From sequence record MK327940.1: 64,000 nucleotides of DNA. One strand, given 5' to 3'. Below are positions 16,330 through 62,741 of this stretch, one piece after another. The DNA comes from Escherichia phage vB_EcoM_G29. Each line of letters begins with the position of its first letter. Positions within the stretch are counted from its first letter, which is position 1. The notes below the pieces were generated by a model. That model did no database searches. It saw nothing but the letters and a program-made list of their open reading frames with translations, and was not told the DNA's origin. The translations under genes and the position numbers were made by a program.

Positions 16330-16333
16330 CAAT

Positions 16334-16363
16334 GGGGACCTTTCGGTCCCCATATTTTTATTT
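16334..16363. terminator. Bidirectional terminator between gene 54 (+) and the alt block (-)
   Basis: GGGGACC-UUUC-GGUCCCC hairpin followed by atatttttattt. Confidence 0.7.
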
Positions 16364-16648
16364 ACGGAATGAAATGAAAGCAGCAACTGAAGCAACTAAA
16401 CTGTCTTCAATATAAACTTCAATTTTTACCGGAGCTTCTGACTCAAATTTACCTGTTACTACACCCTGAAAAATACTTTCAGTCTGTTCTGGCTTTGAAA
16501 AATTTTCAGAAGGAAAAATTCCGAACTTTTTATCTGTTCCAAAAATTTTGATAAATTCATCGTAAACTGCTTCATTAAAAGCATTATCAGCAGGAATAAC
16601 GCCTTCAACTACAAGTTCTTGACCTAAAAAGCGCAAAGAAGATTTCAT
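16358..16648 (-). CDS. Hypothetical protein (position of T4 alt.-3)
   Basis: 96-aa ORF with SD GAGGA; preceded by an early promoter. Confidence 0.6.
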   Translation of the reverse strand: MKSSLRFLGQELVVEGVIPADNAFNEAVYDEFIKIFGTDKKFGIFPSENFSKPEQTESIFQGVVTGKFESEAPVKIEVYIEDSLVASVAAFISFRK

Positions 16649-16678
16649 TTTGTGTTCCTCATGTTATGTCAGTAAGAC

Positions 16679-16709
16679 TACTATAACACAACACGAGGGA
16701 CTTGTAAAC
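16679..16709 (-). promoter_or_regulatory. T4-type early promoter (GTTTAC -35, TATAGT -10)
   Basis: Minus strand GTTTAC-18 nt-TATAGT; part of a 53-bp unit repeated at 32581-32633. Confidence 0.6.
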
Positions 16710-18766
16710 TACATCTTGAACTTTTTAGACATTCCGTTGATGTTAACCAAAGAAGCTAAGATTTGAGAAACTTCGTTTTCCTCTTCTTTTGATTCTTCTA
16801 CAAGGAATTGATTAAATCCAGCCATTGGACGAACTTCACCAGTTTCCATTAGATGGTCGCCATCATATACTGATTCTTCTAATTGTTCAGAAGGAGGAAC
16901 GATTGTACCTTCGATTAGATACTTGTTATAAGCAGTTTCTTTCATAAAGTAAGTACTTACTTTATTAATCTTCAGTAAAATTCCACGTGGTAGAATAACT
17001 TCAGCTTCTGACGGAAATCCTGATAAATGACCCGGAACGATAACTTTGATTCGCTCAGCTCCTTTAATTACCATACCCACGCTAGTTTCAGCATCTTCAT
17101 TAGCATATGTAGAATGACTACCCATATGCATCAAATCTTCTGCATCAACGGAACCTTCTCCTTCACCAGAAAATACTGCGCCGGAATCATCTAGAGCCAT
17201 ATAGTTTTTACCATGCTCACCGAAGATATTTGGTTTAAGCGATGTGGATACGAAGTTCTTGAAATAGAACATTTTATTTTCAATGTTATGACGCAAAGTT
17301 TTAAAGGTAACTTCTTGTCCACGGTAAAGTGTAGTTCCTGGAGGAAGAACTGAACCTTTAGCGAATGCAGAATCAAGCGTCTCAATATGTTTAATAGCTC
17401 GTTCCATATATTCTTCACGGGTAGAATCTGGTTTACCCAAAAGGAACGAGTTCATTTCAACATATGAATCTGCACAATAATCTTCAATTACATCAGATTC
17501 AGCTTGAGTTAATCCTTTTGGAGTTACTTCAGTGCTTGCGTATTCATATGCCTGAGCAGCAGATTCATTAATCAATTTATAAATGCCATTCATGACAAAT
17601 TGAATAATAGCTGTCTTTTCATCTGGCGTAGCTTTAGAACCTTTAACCAAATCATTGATAATTTTCTTAATAACATCAAAGCTATTAGAAATATTAATAT
17701 CAGCAAGATCGCTTAAAATTTTATCAGTCTTATAATCAAAGAATTCTTTATTCTTTAAATATTCTTGAGAACCTTGATATGTTATATCGCTCTGTAACTT
17801 GATAGATGGATCACGTAAACGTGCATGGGCTAATGCAATATGATTTCGGAAGCTTTCGAGTTCATAATCACTAGATTTAAAACGAGAAGCGCTTCTCATA
17901 CCGCCTATAGCTCCTTTGCTGAAGTTTGAACCAATTTGAATAACGCCAGAGTTCATTGGTCCTTCTGCTTTATACACCGGAACTTTAGATTCAAACTCTT
18001 GATATTTCTTAGCAGCGAAGCTATCACCCTGAAGTGAAGCATCAACAGTAGAATATTGAGCTTGTGCTGCTAATCGACGACTAATTTTAGTTTTCTGAAT
18101 AACAGCTTGGTCCGTGCGCTTATCATTTTCTAAAGCAATAGAAGCAGCAACAGCAACAGCTTTAGGAACAGCATTACCTGTTTTAACATCTACATAAACA
18201 TCACCAACCTTTGATTCAACTTTTGTGAATAACTCAGTTGAAATAGGAGGTACACCTGGAATGTCTTCTAAATTGGCATTTTTACGATAAACCATAATAT
18301 ATGCGTACTTTTTATCATAATCCCAGATTTCCTTTAAAAGAACATATCGACCTGCTCCTTTAGTACGTACTAAACGGTCAGCAATAACTTGCATTTGACG
18401 AGCAGCGCCATTTGTTTTACTCTTTAGTACGCGGAATAAGCATGCATCAATTTTATACTGTTTCATTGTTTGAAGAGCAGTATCAAAAACAGCGTTAATG
18501 ACGCCAATTGGATTTCCACCCAAGTTTCTAAGTTTAACCAGTGATAATTTCTCGTTGACACCTATCATTACGATATGCATCATTTTATCGCCCGGCTTAA
18601 CGTTTTTATTTGTATCACCTCCAGAGGTGTATGTACAAAATCTAAATCCAGGAAGCACGCTTTCTTCGCCGGCTTGAATAGCAAAAATTTGAGGTATTTT
18701 ATGCTTAGGATTTAAGTTAACAACCGGCGCCGAAGCGCCGTCAAATAATTCTGTAATAAGTTCCAT
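16709..18766 (-). CDS. Alt-like ADP-ribosyltransferase, second full-length paralog
   Basis: 685-aa ORF; N-terminus MELITELFD and ART motifs (YRGQ, VSTSL, EAEVILPRG) parallel to the adjacent alt; about 50-65% identity by eye. Confidence 0.8.
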   Translation of the reverse strand: MELITELFDGASAPVVNLNPKHKIPQIFAIQAGEESVLPGFRFCTYTSGGDTNKNVKPGDKMMHIVMIGVNEKLSLVKLRNLGGNPIGVINAVFDTALQTMKQYKIDACLFRVLKSKTNGAARQMQVIADRLVRTKGAGRYVLLKEIWDYDKKYAYIMVYRKNANLEDIPGVPPISTELFTKVESKVGDVYVDVKTGNAVPKAVAVAASIALENDKRTDQAVIQKTKISRRLAAQAQYSTVDASLQGDSFAAKKYQEFESKVPVYKAEGPMNSGVIQIGSNFSKGAIGGMRSASRFKSSDYELESFRNHIALAHARLRDPSIKLQSDITYQGSQEYLKNKEFFDYKTDKILSDLADINISNSFDVIKKIINDLVKGSKATPDEKTAIIQFVMNGIYKLINESAAQAYEYASTEVTPKGLTQAESDVIEDYCADSYVEMNSFLLGKPDSTREEYMERAIKHIETLDSAFAKGSVLPPGTTLYRGQEVTFKTLRHNIENKMFYFKNFVSTSLKPNIFGEHGKNYMALDDSGAVFSGEGEGSVDAEDLMHMGSHSTYANEDAETSVGMVIKGAERIKVIVPGHLSGFPSEAEVILPRGILLKINKVSTYFMKETAYNKYLIEGTIVPPSEQLEESVYDGDHLMETGEVRPMAGFNQFLVEESKEEENEVSQILASLVNINGMSKKFKM

Positions 18767-18769
18767 GAT

Positions 18770-20821
18770 TTATCCTTGAACGAACTTGTAAGGCATGTTT
18801 GTAATATCTATGCAAGACGCAATAATTCCAAGAGATGATTCTACTTTCTGTTTAACATTTGATGAAACAAATGATGCAAAGTCAACTCTATCTTCTATAT
18901 CACCTGTCATTGTAACTACTTCGCCGGTTTCCATTAAACGGTCACCGTCATAAATTACTGATTCGGTGAGTTCTTCGGTGGTCATAACTTCAGCTTGAAT
19001 AAGCTTGTTGTTAGTTTTGACTGTTCCATCATTGTAAGATGCATCAGTTATTTTATTAACTTTGACCATTAATCCACGTGGCAAAATGACTTCCATTTCA
19101 TTTGAAGGCGCTAAACTTCCACCGGGTAAAACAACATTGACTTTATCAGCCCCAGTAATAACCCATCCAATTCCGACTAAATTATCGCTAGAATTAACAA
19201 GCCCTTCATCATTTTTATCGATAGAAATGTTTAGACGCTTTTCATCTGGTAAAACACCAACAGCTGAATCAGTCATCCAAGTACCAAAAATGTTTGGATA
19301 TAATGATGTTGATACAAAATTTCTAAAATAAAAAACTCGATTTTTTACCATTGCTTCGTATATTGAAGGTAACATTCGTTGTGAACGATACAAAGTAATA
19401 CCTTTTGGTAATCGTTCACCATTTTTAAAGGCTGAATCTAAATTATCAATAGCTTTTTCTATGTCAGATGCTGTCAAAATACTTGTACGCTCATCTGGAT
19501 TATATAATCCCAAAAGAGCATTATTTATGTCTACATATCCTGAACCTACGTATTCACGAATTCCGCGTTTTTGTGCTGGTGTGTATTTAGATGAATCTTT
19601 ATTTTCGACTATAGGATGTAATGACCATCCAGCTGTAAGAGCATATCCACGTAATTCTCTTCGAATAATCTTTGTTTTTATTGCATTCCAAGAATTTTGT
19701 ACTAACTCATTTGCAGCATCTTGGTTTAAATGCGAATGTTTGTTAATATTTCTTTCAAACCAAGCACCTTTATATTTTTCTAAAGTATTATCGACGATAG
19801 AAGCAATAGTTTCTAAAGTTTTTATTGAAGTAATAGATTCTTTTCGTAATTTTTCTAAAGCTTTATTTTTTATTTCTGCATTAATAATGGATTCTTTATC
19901 TTCAGGAATTATAGAAGCTTCTCTGAATGCCATCCCAGCTGTAACACTGCTAAGAGCATTCTCTAGTGCAAATCCTGAAGTAGAAATTACCGTTAATTCA
20001 TTAGAATCAGAAATTAAAGGCGCATCAGCGGGTTTATTTAATTCTGCTGCTGAAGCCTCAAATTTTTGAAACATCGGTGTTTCAAATCTAGAAGATTCCA
20101 ATGACTGACTTTGTGCAATTGCTCTACGGGAAATTTTAACTTTAACGATTACAGCTTGGTCAGAACGTTTATCATTTTCTTGTGCAATAGATGCTGCAAT
20201 TGCCTCATTTTTGGTTACTTGAGCTCCGGTATCTTTATTGATATAAACATCACCGACCTTCGATTCAACTTTAGTAAAGAGCTCGGTACTAATTTCCGGA
20301 ACTCCTGGAATGTCTTCTAGTGATACATTTTTGCGATGTATAAGAATATATGCATACTTTTTATCATAATCCCAGAGTTCCTTAAGAAGGACGTATCTGC
20401 CACCTGAACGACTACGGATAAGTCTATCAGCAATAACTTGAATTTGTCGAGCTTGATCAGCGGTTTTAGACTTAAGAATACGAAGCATACAAGCATCAAT
20501 TTTATACTGACGCATTGTTTGCATTGCAACAGTAAAAACTGAATTGATATAATTAATTGGGCTTGGACCAAGACCTTTTAATTTAGCAATTGAACCTTTA
20601 GCGGTTAATGTAAAAGGAACAATATGCATCATTTTATCGCCCATTTTTAAATCGCGATTAGTATCACCTCCAGATGTATAGGTACATAAACGAAAGCCTG
20701 GTTGTTCAATTGCATCATCAACATGAACTGAAAAAATTTGCGGTATTTTCTTCTTTGGATTTAAGTTTGTAATCGGAAGAGTAGTATCTTCGTCAAATAA
20801 TTCTGTAATAAGTTCCATCAT
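18770..20821 (-). CDS. alt: Alt ADP-ribosyltransferase (packaged internal head protein)
   Basis: 683-aa ORF with R-S-E ART motifs (LYRSQ, VSTSL, EMEVILPRG); late promoter immediately upstream. Confidence 0.85.
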   Translation of the reverse strand: MMELITELFDEDTTLPITNLNPKKKIPQIFSVHVDDAIEQPGFRLCTYTSGGDTNRDLKMGDKMMHIVPFTLTAKGSIAKLKGLGPSPINYINSVFTVAMQTMRQYKIDACMLRILKSKTADQARQIQVIADRLIRSRSGGRYVLLKELWDYDKKYAYILIHRKNVSLEDIPGVPEISTELFTKVESKVGDVYINKDTGAQVTKNEAIAASIAQENDKRSDQAVIVKVKISRRAIAQSQSLESSRFETPMFQKFEASAAELNKPADAPLISDSNELTVISTSGFALENALSSVTAGMAFREASIIPEDKESIINAEIKNKALEKLRKESITSIKTLETIASIVDNTLEKYKGAWFERNINKHSHLNQDAANELVQNSWNAIKTKIIRRELRGYALTAGWSLHPIVENKDSSKYTPAQKRGIREYVGSGYVDINNALLGLYNPDERTSILTASDIEKAIDNLDSAFKNGERLPKGITLYRSQRMLPSIYEAMVKNRVFYFRNFVSTSLYPNIFGTWMTDSAVGVLPDEKRLNISIDKNDEGLVNSSDNLVGIGWVITGADKVNVVLPGGSLAPSNEMEVILPRGLMVKVNKITDASYNDGTVKTNNKLIQAEVMTTEELTESVIYDGDRLMETGEVVTMTGDIEDRVDFASFVSSNVKQKVESSLGIIASCIDITNMPYKFVQG

Positions 20822-31728: not shown

Positions 31729-32078
31729 TTAGAAAGGTCCTGGATGTCTTCTGCGAACTTGTTGAAGGAGTTGTTGATTTGTTTTTCAACCAATCCTGGC
31801 TTATGAGCCACCACATCCGCCTTCTTTGCGTCTTTGCGCAGCTTTTCATTTTCACGCTCAATAGCAGCAATCGCCTCACGATTTTTATTATTCATCGCAT
31901 CAATATAATTATACTGAATTCGCAAATTATTTAATGCTAAGGCGTTTTCATTGGCCGTTTTTGTAATTTCTACAACAGACGTTTCTAATCTTTCTACCTT
32001 ATTTTTTAAAATAATAGATGTTCCGCCAAATGCTATTACAAGTAATAGCAATCCAGCTGTAAAATTACTTACATGCAT
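31725..32078 (-). CDS. Inner-membrane spanin (Rz-like)
   Basis: 117-aa ORF; N-terminal TM helix (LLLLVIAFGG) then charged coiled-coil region; directly upstream of the lipoprotein ORF. Confidence 0.65.
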   Translation of the reverse strand: MHVSNFTAGLLLLVIAFGGTSIILKNKVERLETSVVEITKTANENALALNNLRIQYNYIDAMNNKNREAIAAIERENEKLRKDAKKADVVAHKPGLVEKQINNSFNKFAEDIQDLSK

Positions 32079-32572
32079 AAAGTTTTAATAACCTCTATAA
32101 TATCGTCTTGAGAAAGACCGTTAATTAAAATATGATGTTCAGCTGGAGATTTAGAAATTTTAAAGCATGCCGCAACATCTTCTGCCATATCCGATGCGCT
32201 ACGATTTGGATTACTAATTCCAAGACGATGTTTTCCCGTCAAAGGATTAACGATGATGTAGCATTTGCAATTATTGATATGAACATTAGGTTGAGTCTGA
32301 TTAATAAACACTTCACAATCATATTTCGCAAGCTGATTTTCTAAAAAGACTTTCATCTCCTCAACCGCATCAGGAAGCATATCACGGGCTTGCTCAAGAC
32401 GACGATTTCGATATTCTTTAATGGTCGTTTTCCGCTTGACTTGCTTAGCTAAATCTTTCTTAAGATCGGTGATATATCCAACTCGACGGTTTCCTTTAAA
32501 TACAGAAATCCCATCTGTAGTATCACCGTATGCTTCAACGACCATTTCAGTAGTAATGAGCTGCAAATCCAT
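32069..32572 (-). CDS. alc: Alc, host transcription termination/unfolding protein
   Basis: 167 aa from the second Met (MDLQLITTEMVVEAYGDTTDG...) as recalled for T4 Alc; early promoter immediately upstream. Confidence 0.8.
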   Translation of the reverse strand: MDLQLITTEMVVEAYGDTTDGISVFKGNRRVGYITDLKKDLAKQVKRKTTIKEYRNRRLEQARDMLPDAVEEMKVFLENQLAKYDCEVFINQTQPNVHINNCKCYIIVNPLTGKHRLGISNPNRSASDMAEDVAACFKISKSPAEHHILINGLSQDDIIEVIKTLCM

Positions 32573-32602
32573 CATAAAGTCCTCATGTTATGTCAGTAAG
32601 AC

Positions 32603-32633
32603 TACTGTAACACAACACGAGGGACTTGTAAAC
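32603..32633 (-). promoter_or_regulatory. T4-type early promoter (copy of the 16657-16709 unit)
   Basis: Minus strand GTTTAC-18 nt-TACAGT; 52 of 53 bp identical to the alt.-3-position promoter. Confidence 0.6.
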
Positions 32634-32636
32634 AGC

Positions 32637-34224
<1,588 letters not shown>

Positions 34225-41082: not shown

Positions 41083-41112
41083 ATAGTATCACACTACTAC
41101 CCTTTTGTAAAC
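41083..41112 (-). promoter_or_regulatory. T4-type early promoter
   Basis: Minus strand GTTTAC-18 nt-TACTAT; the -35 overlaps the stop of the upstream ORF. Confidence 0.55.
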
Positions 41113-41753: not shown

Positions 41754-41796
41754 ATTATTTTCCTCTTTAATTATCAGCAGTATTGCCGATAGTTGT

Positions 41797-41826
41797 ATAG
41801 TACCATGGAAGGACAAGGATGTAAAC
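41797..41826 (-). promoter_or_regulatory. T4-type early promoter with A/T-rich upstream element
   Basis: Minus strand GTTTAC-18 nt-TACTAT; the flanking sequence recurs at 58484-58545 and 62136-62190. Confidence 0.6.
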
Positions 41827-41849
41827 AGTTTTGTGAAAAAATTTTTGAA

Positions 41850-41877
41850 ATAAAAAAAGGGGACCTCTAGGGTCCCC
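41850..41877 (-). terminator. Terminator after gene 32
   Basis: GGGGACC...GGUCCCC hairpin followed on the minus strand by uuuuuuua. Confidence 0.7.
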
Positions 41878-53888: not shown

Positions 53889-54689
53889 ATGGCAGTAGTT
53901 GGTGTTCCCGGTTGGATTGGAAGTTCATCCGTAAATGAAACAGGACAACGATGGATGAGTCAAGCAGCTGGTCAATTAAGATTGGGTGTTCCTTGCTGGA
54001 TGAGCCAATTCGCCGGACGCTCAAGAGAGATTATTCATACTGTAAGTGCTAATCATAATTTTAATGGTCAGTGGTTCCGTGATAGATGCTTTGAAGCTGG
54101 CGGTGCACCCATTGTATTCAATATTGTTGGTGATATCGTTTCTTATTCTAAAGATGTGCCACTTTTCTTTATGTATGGGGATACGCCTAATGAATATGTT
54201 GTTCTTAATATTCATGGTGGTGTTCATATGTGGGGTCGTGGTGGTAATGGTGGATACACTCACTCAGGAGGCGACGGTAACGGTACACAAGGCGGTCATG
54301 TTATTCAAAATGATATCGGTGGACGGCTTCGTATTTGGAACTACGGTGTTATAGCTGCTGGTGGTGGCGGTGGTGGTGGTATTGCATATCGTCCACACTC
54401 AGGGGCAAACTGGCAAGATATCGGTGGCGGTGGTGGTCGACCTTTCGGTGGCGCTGGCGGCGGCGGTTATTCCGGTGGTGCTGCTTCGTATGAAGGTCCG
54501 GGTGGTGGTTATGACTATGGTAACGCACACTCCGGCGCTGGTGGTAATGCTGGTGCTTCTGGTCAGAATGCATGGTCTGACGGCGGTAAAGTTCTTAAAG
54601 TTGGTGTTGGTGGTGCGTCTGGTCATGCAGTGTTTGGATCTTCTCCAACTTGGGGTGCTGTTGGAACAATTTACGGACCAAGAGTATAA
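53889..54689 (+). CDS. 38: gp38 tail-fibre tip adhesin with glycine-rich motifs (T2-type)
   Basis: 266 aa from the ATG at 53889; poly-Gly blocks ([28 protein letters not shown]) alternating with variable segments. Confidence 0.85.
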
Positions 54690-58436: not shown

Positions 58437-58485
58437 TTTTTGTATCTCCGGGTTGTTTGTTTCAGTTCATTTATTTGATAGTTGT

Positions 58486-58515
58486 ATAGTACCACAGTAT
58501 GCTTTGGTTGTAAAC
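58486..58515 (-). promoter_or_regulatory. T4-type early promoter
   Basis: Minus strand GTTTAC-18 nt-TACTAT plus A/T-rich upstream tract. Confidence 0.6.
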
Positions 58516-58534
58516 CGTTTTGTGAAAAAATTTT

Positions 58535-58566
58535 TGAAATAAAAAAGGGAGAGCCGAGGCTCTCCC
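58535..58566 (-). terminator. Terminator after the gene 52 operon
   Basis: GGGAGAGCC...GGCUCUCCC hairpin followed on the minus strand by uuuuuuauuuc. Confidence 0.65.
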
Positions 58567-61483: not shown

Positions 61484-61597
61484 TCACATAAATCCAAAGT
61501 AAGCGTTTAATACATCAATCATTAAAACGATTGGGAATATACTCAAAACTACTAGTATTATAACTACATTCCATATAGCTTTAACAATCTTTTTCAT
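61484..61597 (-). CDS. Small membrane protein
   Basis: 37 aa from MKKIVKAIWNVVIILVVLSIFPIVLM... with SD GGAGG; the track ORF start lies upstream of its own promoter. Confidence 0.45.
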   Translation of the reverse strand: MKKIVKAIWNVVIILVVLSIFPIVLMIDVLNAYFGFM

Positions 61598-61624
61598 TTT
61601 CTGTTCCTCCGTAGTTGATAGGTA

Positions 61625-61654
61625 ATAGTACCACGGAAGAACAGTCTTGTAAAC
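61625..61654 (-). promoter_or_regulatory. T4-type early promoter
   Basis: Minus strand GTTTAC-18 nt-TACTAT. Confidence 0.55.
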
Positions 61655-62103: not shown

Positions 62104-62137
62104 TTTACTCTCCAAATCCGTATCAGTTGATAGTTGT

Positions 62138-62167
62138 ATAGTACCACGGTCCTTGTGGTATGTAAAC
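62138..62167 (-). promoter_or_regulatory. T4-type early promoter
   Basis: Minus strand GTTTAC-18 nt-TACTAT with shared upstream A/T tract. Confidence 0.55.
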
Positions 62168-62183
62168 CATTTTGTGAAATTTT

Positions 62184-62741
62184 TTAAATGGAAAGATACC
62201 ATCCGCTGTAGTTGCTTTTTCTTACAACCTTACGAAGGTCTTCTCTATCACCGATGAACTTCGGAGTGTATTGGATGACACCTGGATGAATTTCTTTAGT
62301 GTTGAATATAATTATACAGTCAGCGACTTGATGATTTAGAATGGGCCCTAGATTTATTCCAGAACCATATGGATACTCTCCGCTGCATCCTGTTGTCACC
62401 GAAATCCAACGTGAGTCAGTTTGATGTGTCTTAACTTCTACACGAAGCCCGCAGTATCTTGGATGCGCCAATACATCCCATGCATATGTGTACGGATCAT
62501 CGACATCTTCTTGACCTTTGTTAACATACCCGCTCAGCCAATCTGCTACAAAAAACTCTGCGTACACAGCGATACGGCATCTTTCGATAACTTCTGCCTT
62601 ATCCTGATTTGGGTTTTGTTTTAAAGAGTATCTTGCAGTATCAACAATTTTGACCTTCATTTCACTAGTCAAGTCACTGTTCGATAGGGTAAATGTCGGA
62701 ATCTGAAATAGTCTCTGTAACCCCGGATTCGTTTTCTGCAT
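62184..62741 (-). CDS. denB: Endonuclease IV (DenB) candidate
   Basis: 185-aa ORF at the position and length of T4 denB between the ndd block and rIIB; assigned by synteny only. Confidence 0.55.
   Translation of the reverse strand: MQKTNPGLQRLFQIPTFTLSNSDLTSEMKVKIVDTARYSLKQNPNQDKAEVIERCRIAVYAEFFVADWLSGYVNKGQEDVDDPYTYAWDVLAHPRYCGLRVEVKTHQTDSRWISVTTGCSGEYPYGSGINLGPILNHQVADCIIIFNTKEIHPGVIQYTPKFIGDREDLRKVVRKSNYSGWYLSI

Follow-up and report, generated by a model that had tools for sequence, protein, structure and literature searches.

A T4-type early-promoter cassette that occurs twice in a Tequatrovirus genome forms a palindrome that may gate translation of alc and alt.-3

Why should two unrelated phage genes, 16 kb apart, be preceded by practically the same 53 bp? 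In the window, by which we mean the whole 64,000-nucleotide stretch of Escherichia phage vB_EcoM_G29 that was analyzed, the sequence at 16657-16709 (copy A) recurs at 32581-32633 (copy B), and the earlier note had described the pair as a promoter-plus-leader unit with 52 of 53 bp identical. The pair was confirmed: copy A agreed with the described sequence without a mismatch and copy B with one, and none of 100 dinucleotide-preserving shuffles contained a match to the 53-base repeat. Comparison of the window with itself, which the note had proposed and which was run as a repeat search, recovered the same pair and extended it by one base to 54 nt (16656-16709 versus 32580-32633, 53/54 identical). 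Identity breaks off sharply at both ends, and on the minus strand the repeated span runs from the G preceding the -35 hexamer to the Shine-Dalgarno sequence. The sole difference lies in the -10 hexamer, where copy A has TATAGT and copy B TACAGT. The copies and their neighbors are as follows.

16656-16709, minus strand: copy A, 53/54-nt cassette, between the stop codon of an alt paralogue and alt.-3
16709-18766, minus strand: full-length alt paralogue, whose stop codon borders copy A
16358-16648, minus strand: alt.-3 ORF, 96 aa, downstream of the copy A promoter, start codon 16648-16646
16332-16353, no strand assigned: G+C-rich, terminator-like stem-loop after alt.-3, shared with the convergent gene 54
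32580-32633, minus strand: copy B, 53/54-nt cassette, between rnlA and alc
32637-33797, minus strand: rnlA, upstream of copy B
32069-32575, minus strand: alc ORF, 168 aa, downstream of the copy B promoter, start ATGATG 32575-32570

The earlier note was right that one promoter-plus-leader unit precedes two unrelated genes; the unit is a T4-type early cassette, and both genes are early. No similarity was detected between the Alt.-3 and Alc proteins. The alc reading frame opens with ATGATG here and also at locus L002 (16274-16279); the second ATG is the one annotated in the T4 record (167 aa), and the first gives the 168-aa product. The alt paralogue next to copy A is one of two full-length paralogues in tandem, the other being the next ORF upstream, with repeats at 18570-18769 and 20619-20821. 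In T4, the second paralogue is reduced to the fragments alt.-1 and alt.-2, and the copy A promoter therefore overlaps the end of alt.-2 there. The stem-loop at 16332-16353 resembles another at 2471-2486; both are G+C-rich, carry GGGACCTTTCGGTCCC, and look like terminators.

Both copies are good matches, by sequence, to sigma-70/T4 early promoters. The elements and the predicted starts are located as follows.

16703-16708, minus strand: copy A -35 hexamer TTTACA, preceded by G (T4-early GTTTAC), by promoter match
16680-16688, minus strand: copy A extended -10, TGT plus TATAGT, after a 17-nt spacer, 10/12 plus TG
16673, minus strand: copy A predicted start, an A 7 nt past the -10, from promoter geometry
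16657-16660, minus strand: copy A Shine-Dalgarno sequence GAGG, by sequence
32627-32632, minus strand: copy B -35 hexamer TTTACA, by promoter match
32604-32612, minus strand: copy B extended -10, TGT plus TACAGT, after a 17-nt spacer, 9/12 plus TG
32597, minus strand: copy B predicted start, an A 7 nt past the -10, from promoter geometry
32581-32584, minus strand: copy B Shine-Dalgarno sequence GAGG, by sequence

Copy A (TTTACA-17-TATAGT) has 10 of the 12 sigma-70 consensus bases and copy B (TTTACA-17-TACAGT) has nine, each with the TG element; the -10 of copy B in G29 is the weaker one. The earlier description, GTTTAC followed by 18 nt and TATAGT or TACAGT, was literally right, but the canonical hexamer is TTTACA, which gives a spacer of 17 nt with TGn. 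Each copy thus shows GTTTAC(A/T), a 17-bp spacer, TAnnnT, and TGn, the features of T4-type early promoters. A-tracts lie upstream of both -35 hexamers, inside coding sequence. The predicted starts correspond to positions of about 123,057 and about 136,300 on the minus strand of T4 (NC_000866). The accessible parts of a DksA RNA-seq paper and of an NAD-cap dRNA-seq preprint yielded no transcription start for alc or alt.-3. In T4, alc and alt.-3 are reported with early RNA and early protein, and the upstream rnlA with early RNA and late protein (PMC9697503 supplement); Alc is likewise described as an early T4 product (PMC2988021).

The cassette is also an imperfect palindrome, which the earlier note had missed. 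The sense-strand RNA, taken as 73 nt around each copy, folds into one long stem of 20-22 bp, in which the spacer and the -10 pair with the leader and the Shine-Dalgarno sequence.

16654-16701, minus strand: copy A hairpin in read-through RNA, dG -23 kcal/mol, z -4.41
32577-32627, minus strand: copy B hairpin in read-through RNA, 22 bp, dG -28.6 kcal/mol, z -5.51

For neither copy was any of 200 shuffles as stable. In copy A, a GUCU loop separates the 5' arm (16701-16679), made up of spacer and -10, from the 3' arm (16674-16654), made up of leader and Shine-Dalgarno sequence. The ends of the repeat coincide with the ends of the hairpin, except that the lower stem of copy B, AAGUCC/GGACUU, extends 4 nt beyond the repeat. 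The GUCU apical loop lies just upstream of the predicted start, so that the predicted +1 falls in the apical loop or the first part of the 3' arm and RNA from the cassette's own promoter would lack the 5' arm. Such RNA is predicted to be unstructured (z +0.8 for copy A and +1.6 for copy B). The calculated probability that the Shine-Dalgarno sequence is unpaired rises from 0.001 in read-through RNA to 0.13 in own-promoter RNA for copy A, and from 0.006 to 0.58 for copy B; the value of 13% for copy A belongs to an ensemble whose fold is weak (-4.2 kcal/mol). In this model, the hairpin should hide the ribosome-binding site in read-through RNA.

An Rfam family and an intrinsic terminator were both considered for the hairpin and rejected. 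No Rfam family matched at gathering score anywhere in the window, neither stem is followed by a U-run, and a terminator scan called neither copy.

We propose the following mechanism. Host sigma-70 RNA polymerase would recognize the cassette immediately after infection and start about 7 nt downstream of the -10, and the resulting RNA, with a short unstructured leader ending in GAGG, would allow immediate-early synthesis of Alc and Alt.-3. RNA arriving from rnlA or from the alt paralogue would carry both arms and would fold, burying the Shine-Dalgarno sequence. Because only transcripts from the own promoter, started inside the loop, would leave the ribosome-binding site free, a temporal gate is the most likely function: translation of alc, and in Tequatrovirus also of alt.-3, would be tied to its own early promoter, and read-through RNA would be silenced. 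If the gate works in this way, the hairpin boundaries would account for identity that runs exactly from the -35 to the Shine-Dalgarno sequence. We give a probability of roughly 0.6 to the reading that a T4-type early-promoter cassette occurs twice, forms a palindrome that gates translation, is older at alc, and has been subject to gene conversion. It draws on the duplicated sequence, its promoter motifs, a predicted fold that covaries from genus to genus, and polymorphic sites common to both copies.

Homologues of alc occur in many T4-like genera, and a comparison set was assembled from eight annotated and 44 IMG/VR alc loci. A promoter within a hairpin lies upstream of alc in at least 10 T4-like lineages, including Tequatro-, Karam-, Gelderland-, Jiaoda-, Winkler-, and Dhakavirus-like phages, with differing stem sequences. 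The layout is constant: the complement of the Shine-Dalgarno sequence comes directly after GTTTACA, the -10 and the start lie in the loop, and the Shine-Dalgarno sequence lies in the 3' arm. The stem variants include AUCUCCGUUU / AAACGGAGAU, UCUCCAUUUGGUU / AACCAAAUGGAGA, AUCCUCAUCAG / CUGAUGAGGAU, and AACCUCUCAUUUUU / GAAAAUGAGAGGUU. In the cross-genus alignment, the 5' positions are anchored on the promoter, and the 3' side is placed by a single register shift for each sequence. Of the 14 x 19 cells, counted in Python, 88.7% pair, versus 64.9 +/- 1.9% when the 3' letters are shuffled (0/1000), a figure biased towards structure in that each register shift was taken from the sequence's own fold. 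Pairing falls to 38-49% when the partner is slid. Changes on both sides are seen at 11 of the 14 stem positions, and position 12-53 is C-G in all 19 sequences. An unguided MAFFT/RNAalifold analysis recovered only six pairs, five of them with compensatory changes.

The alc hairpin was absent from the loci examined in Mosigvirus, Gaprivervirus, and Aeromonas phages. At alc in L071/L084, L077, L089, and Acinetobacter phages, a hairpin covers the -10 and ends short of the Shine-Dalgarno sequence. Upstream of alt.-3 in other genera, there is only a small hairpin within the spacer, which does not sequester the Shine-Dalgarno sequence. Beyond Tequatrovirus, the architecture is widespread at alc but missing at alt.-3; the copy at alc is therefore probably older, and the source of the alt.-3 copy, which looks specific to Tequatrovirus. 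As a separate observation, the match to alc is split in two and extends over about 740 nt, where about 500 nt is usual, in L063, L064, L087, and phage 212 (PQ765507.1), and this sequence pattern suggests an insertion inside the gene.

Within Tequatrovirus, both copies were collected from 24 genomes, giving 11 distinct A and 15 distinct B sequences. Few further Tequatrovirus copies came from exact-pattern scans of IMG/VR and metagenomes; seven of 17 metagenome matches differed from the cassette at more than 14 positions, or lacked a complete 53-nt window, and were dropped. Standard pairs occupy 92.6% of the stem cells in copy A and 99.1% in copy B, and merely 26-57% of cells pair when the partner is slid by one to three columns. 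A shuffle control of pairing is uninformative within the genus, as each pair varies on one side only. No two-sided compensatory change was found among the 11 A and 15 B sequences because divergence is too low. Ten distinct transitions hit paired positions, and in nine of them pairing is preserved by G-U or strengthened; random transitions would preserve it in about 57% of cases (P ~0.03). The pair-breaking transition is the common G29A, which loses the apical pair and gains the consensus TATAAT. Furthermore, the copies differ by a single U-to-C change in this window and by a single G-to-A change in T4, and these mismatches affect the two partners of one U-G pair, converting it to C-G in G29 and to U-A in T4.

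Similar promoters elsewhere in the window bear on what the hairpin does. Eleven minus-strand sites combine an early-promoter match with a Shine-Dalgarno sequence and ATG, and six of them carry hairpins; they are listed here by -35 position.

16708, 32632, and 61653, minus strand: stem reaching the Shine-Dalgarno sequence, by fold
41111, 29329, and 25244, minus strand: strong hairpin over the -10 only, z -3.5 to -4.6
62166, 58169, 55709, 45128, and 41825, minus strand: no notable hairpin, by fold

The third cassette with a stem from the spacer to the Shine-Dalgarno sequence, at about 61597-61654 on the minus strand (z -5.5, with 15 pairs between the spacer and the initiation region), precedes a 37-aa membrane-like ORF. 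A second repeated early-promoter family, of 76 nt, is present at 41788-41863, 58477-58552, and 62129-62204, all on the minus strand; its members are 84% and 61% identical to the reference copy and have an A/T-rich block upstream of GTTTAC.

The main rival to translational gating is that the hairpin serves mainly as an attenuator, a terminator, or a 3'-end stabilizer for the alt paralogue and rnlA, with its pairing to the Shine-Dalgarno sequence incidental. The hairpins at 41111, 29329, and 25244 stop short of the Shine-Dalgarno sequence, and they may therefore serve a broader purpose, such as the attenuation proposed for PeSLs, the published class of phage promoter units to which we return at the end. 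Together with the alc loci L071, L077, and L089, whose hairpins likewise stop short, they suggest a function that is not tied to the Shine-Dalgarno sequence. One PeSL stem-loop of RB49 reduced expression of a downstream lacZ about as much as a strong terminator, according to the accessible text of Arbiol et al. 2010 (PMC2839356). However, there is no U-tract at either cassette: the copy A stem runs on as AACACAAAAUG, and those of other genera run on as AAAACGAAAUG and similar sequences, and the terminator scan was negative for both copies. Moreover, the 5' arm opens with the exact complement of the Shine-Dalgarno sequence (CUCC or CCUC) right after the -35 in at least 10 lineages, and termination alone leaves that pattern, including the invariant C-G at position 12-53, unexplained. 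We consider attenuation as the main role unlikely, though it is the strongest competitor, and attenuation and translational gating are compatible with each other.

The earlier note had suggested that the near-identical cassettes could mediate recombination and gene shuffling. In its strong form this makes the repeats chiefly substrates for recombination, driving reciprocal exchange, deletion, duplication, or gene shuffling between the two loci, and the distribution of the cassette bears directly on it. The window belongs to Tequatrovirus and is 100% identical to Escherichia phage vB_EcoM_G4500 over both test stretches. Both cassettes are present in T4, with one mismatch at a site other than that seen here (leader ACTAAC versus ACTGAC), and in T2, with more differences. 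BLAST with either 91-nt region returned 496-497 records near full length, almost all with exactly two sites. About 497-499 Tequatrovirus records carry two copies each in constant gene contexts, and in nearly all of the approximately 500 records the copies lie 13-16 kb apart. The presence of two copies across Tequatrovirus, including T4 and T2, implies that the duplication is older than the diversification of the genus.

Only one record, vB_EcoM-G28 (NC_054916), has three copies. The third is a perfect local tandem duplication of 351 bp (L038 3667-4070) in which copy A is not involved, so that recombination between copies A and B was rejected as its source. The duplicated segment covers the 3' end of rnlA, the cassette, and the 5' end of alc, leaving a truncated alc. 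In the record of phage HY03 (NC_031047.1), the copies lie on opposite strands at 54200-54288 and 158169-158257, 104 kb apart, which may reflect a rearrangement or a misassembly.

The copies nevertheless appear to have traded sequence. In the 24 genomes, which were picked for divergence rather than at random and without regard to allele sharing, nine sites are polymorphic in copy A and 12 in copy B, and the same derived base occurs at both loci at seven sites against 2.0 expected (hypergeometric P = 1.5e-4). The haplotype C11T/C15T/G16A is found in copy A of PST, G2540, T2, and others and in copy B of ph0021; many phages carry G29A/G32A in copy A, G28 carries it in copy B, and UFV11 in both; and G40A is shared between T4 (copy A) and JK38 (copy B). 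A simple pattern in which the two copies are more alike within than between genomes was absent among these 24. One Dhakavirus-like genome carries the leader CCTTACACAAACATGAGGAGAACATTATG, letter for letter, before both alc and alt.-3 and still retains the alc stem. To judge from these sequences, the shared alleles and haplotypes are best explained as short gene-conversion patches, and we propose that the near-identity of the duplicates is maintained by constraint on promoter and structure together with occasional gene conversion.

Related leaders and cassettes also occur before other genes. The same 29-nt leader, with its Shine-Dalgarno sequence and ATG, was found in four IMG/VR sequences (L108, L109, L110, and L112), where it precedes alt.-3, alc (in one genome), and a third gene whose product starts MINTFRKYGEM. 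In Mosigvirus (L005 2483-2543 and L006 2501-2562), a cassette with 87% similarity to copy A between the -10 and the ATG stands before a 66-aa ORF between denB and ndd and has its own inverted repeat, GTAGGA...TCCTAC.

The part of the recombination proposal that concerns exchange therefore stood, in the form of patches, whereas the part that concerns deletion, duplication, and gene shuffling did not: a search of about 500 Tequatrovirus records for such variants found copy number and context constant, and no rearrangement (deletion, duplication, or swap) with copies A and B as its endpoints. For PeSLs, a function of promoter cassettes as recombination modules has already been put forward in print (PMC2839356; Comeau et al. 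2014, PMC4122927), and the accessible text of the former describes PeSL mini-circles in RB49 and phi1. These precedents, the haplotypes common to both copies, the identical Dhakavirus-like leaders that also precede a third gene, and the Mosigvirus cassette before a different ORF beside ndd all speak for a role in recombination. The constant contexts and the origin of the G28 copy without copy A speak against it, and the exchanges observed are short, non-reciprocal patches, a consequence of similarity rather than its reason. The 16-kb interval also holds genes 30 and 31, which we take from established knowledge to be essential in T4, so reciprocal products should not survive. Recombination as the chief role of the repeats is, in our view, improbable.

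A still weaker alternative is that the palindrome acts as DNA, either as the site of a dimeric regulator or as a promoter cruciform. Its center of symmetry does fall close to the -10 and the start, a likely place for an operator. A protein-binding site should keep its sequence, however, whereas across genera the stem sequence varies and complementarity is kept. The sense strand contains G-U pairs, three in Tequatrovirus, and a hand tally of the cross-genus alignment gave 14 G-U versus six A-C cells; the transitions within the genus preserve pairing only in sense-strand RNA. A function at the DNA level is thus very improbable. The least credible account is that a promoter was simply duplicated not long ago, that the similarity is inherited, and that the structure plays no part. 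It has in its favor the single mismatch in this window and is hard to sustain against a pair that is genus-wide (T4 and T2 included), fold z-scores of -4.4 to -5.5, and compensatory changes that preserve the structure in other genera.

Should the proposed gate operate, it would account for the conservation of a promoter spacer, which is usually free to vary, and would show how a phage might, with no dedicated regulator, keep the potentially harmful Alc to the opening minutes of infection. C-terminal extensions of T4 Alt.-3 allow escape from the CmdTAC defence, while the wild-type function of the protein is obscure (PMC11618068); because alt.-3 mutants escape CmdTAC, the protein has lately attracted attention, and control of its expression is of practical use. 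The pair also provides a natural case in which 53-bp repeats swap sequence patches across 16 kb, which bears on the uniformity and spread of early-gene control regions in T4-like phages. Current views of T4 gene regulation are not overturned by these results.

The promoter itself agrees with the T4 early promoters used by the host sigma-70 polymerase before prereplicative genes, having the same -35, TGn, and -10 and no essential difference from them (PMC2988021). The closest match for the whole unit is the PeSL, described in the accessible text of PMC2839356 as an early promoter with a stem-loop between the -35 and -10 or over the -10 and with a 3' Shine-Dalgarno sequence and start codon. Later work brought the PST/T4 pair into the class, with the consensus TTTACW-N17-TAYWAT (PMC4122927, as far as its text was accessible). 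As in these descriptions, each of our two copies is a 50-100 bp intergenic unit with an A/T-rich upstream part, a sigma-70-type early promoter, a stem-loop over the -10, and a 3' Shine-Dalgarno sequence and start codon; similar copies precede unrelated genes, and sequence is exchanged between them, here in patches only.

The accessible PeSL texts also mark differences. The present copies are 16 kb apart and flank essential genes, with the result that no module excision is seen. PeSLs go along with insertions, deletions, or module swaps in hyperplastic regions, whereas gene context and copy number here are constant in about 500 genomes. The PST stem-loops are placed just upstream of the promoter (Fig. 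3 legend of PMC4122927), whereas here the stem spans the promoter. Their authors read the stem as a terminator or attenuator, whereas here it pairs exactly with the Shine-Dalgarno sequence, with covariation at alc. Compared by the text description of PeSLs, the cassette fits that published class and is a well-built example of it rather than a new system. Pairing of the Shine-Dalgarno sequence around an early promoter at alc, supported by sequence covariation, was not found in the literature accessible to us.

A second comparison concerns the T4 genes e, soc, 49, and I-TevI, in which a helix in long transcripts from further upstream hides the Shine-Dalgarno sequence or AUG, and a promoter inside the structure produces translatable transcripts without the 5' arm (PMC3014915). 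The text of that review of sequestering hairpins nowhere mentions alc. The cassette shares with these genes a Shine-Dalgarno sequence held in a stable helix (unpaired probability 0.001 and 0.006) and a promoter of its own inside it, with a start predicted there. The promoters of e, soc, 49, and I-TevI are late and their translation is delayed; the cassette, by contrast, contains no TATAAATA and hence no late (gp55) promoter, and with an early sigma-70 promoter its translation would be early-only. We would put slightly less than even odds on the more specific proposal that this is a conserved T4-like timing device which confines synthesis of Alc, the terminator of host transcription, to RNA from its own immediate-early promoter, was copied to alt.-3 in the ancestor of Tequatrovirus and has undergone gene conversion since, and would work as the early counterpart, reversed in timing, of the late gates at e, soc, 49, and I-TevI.
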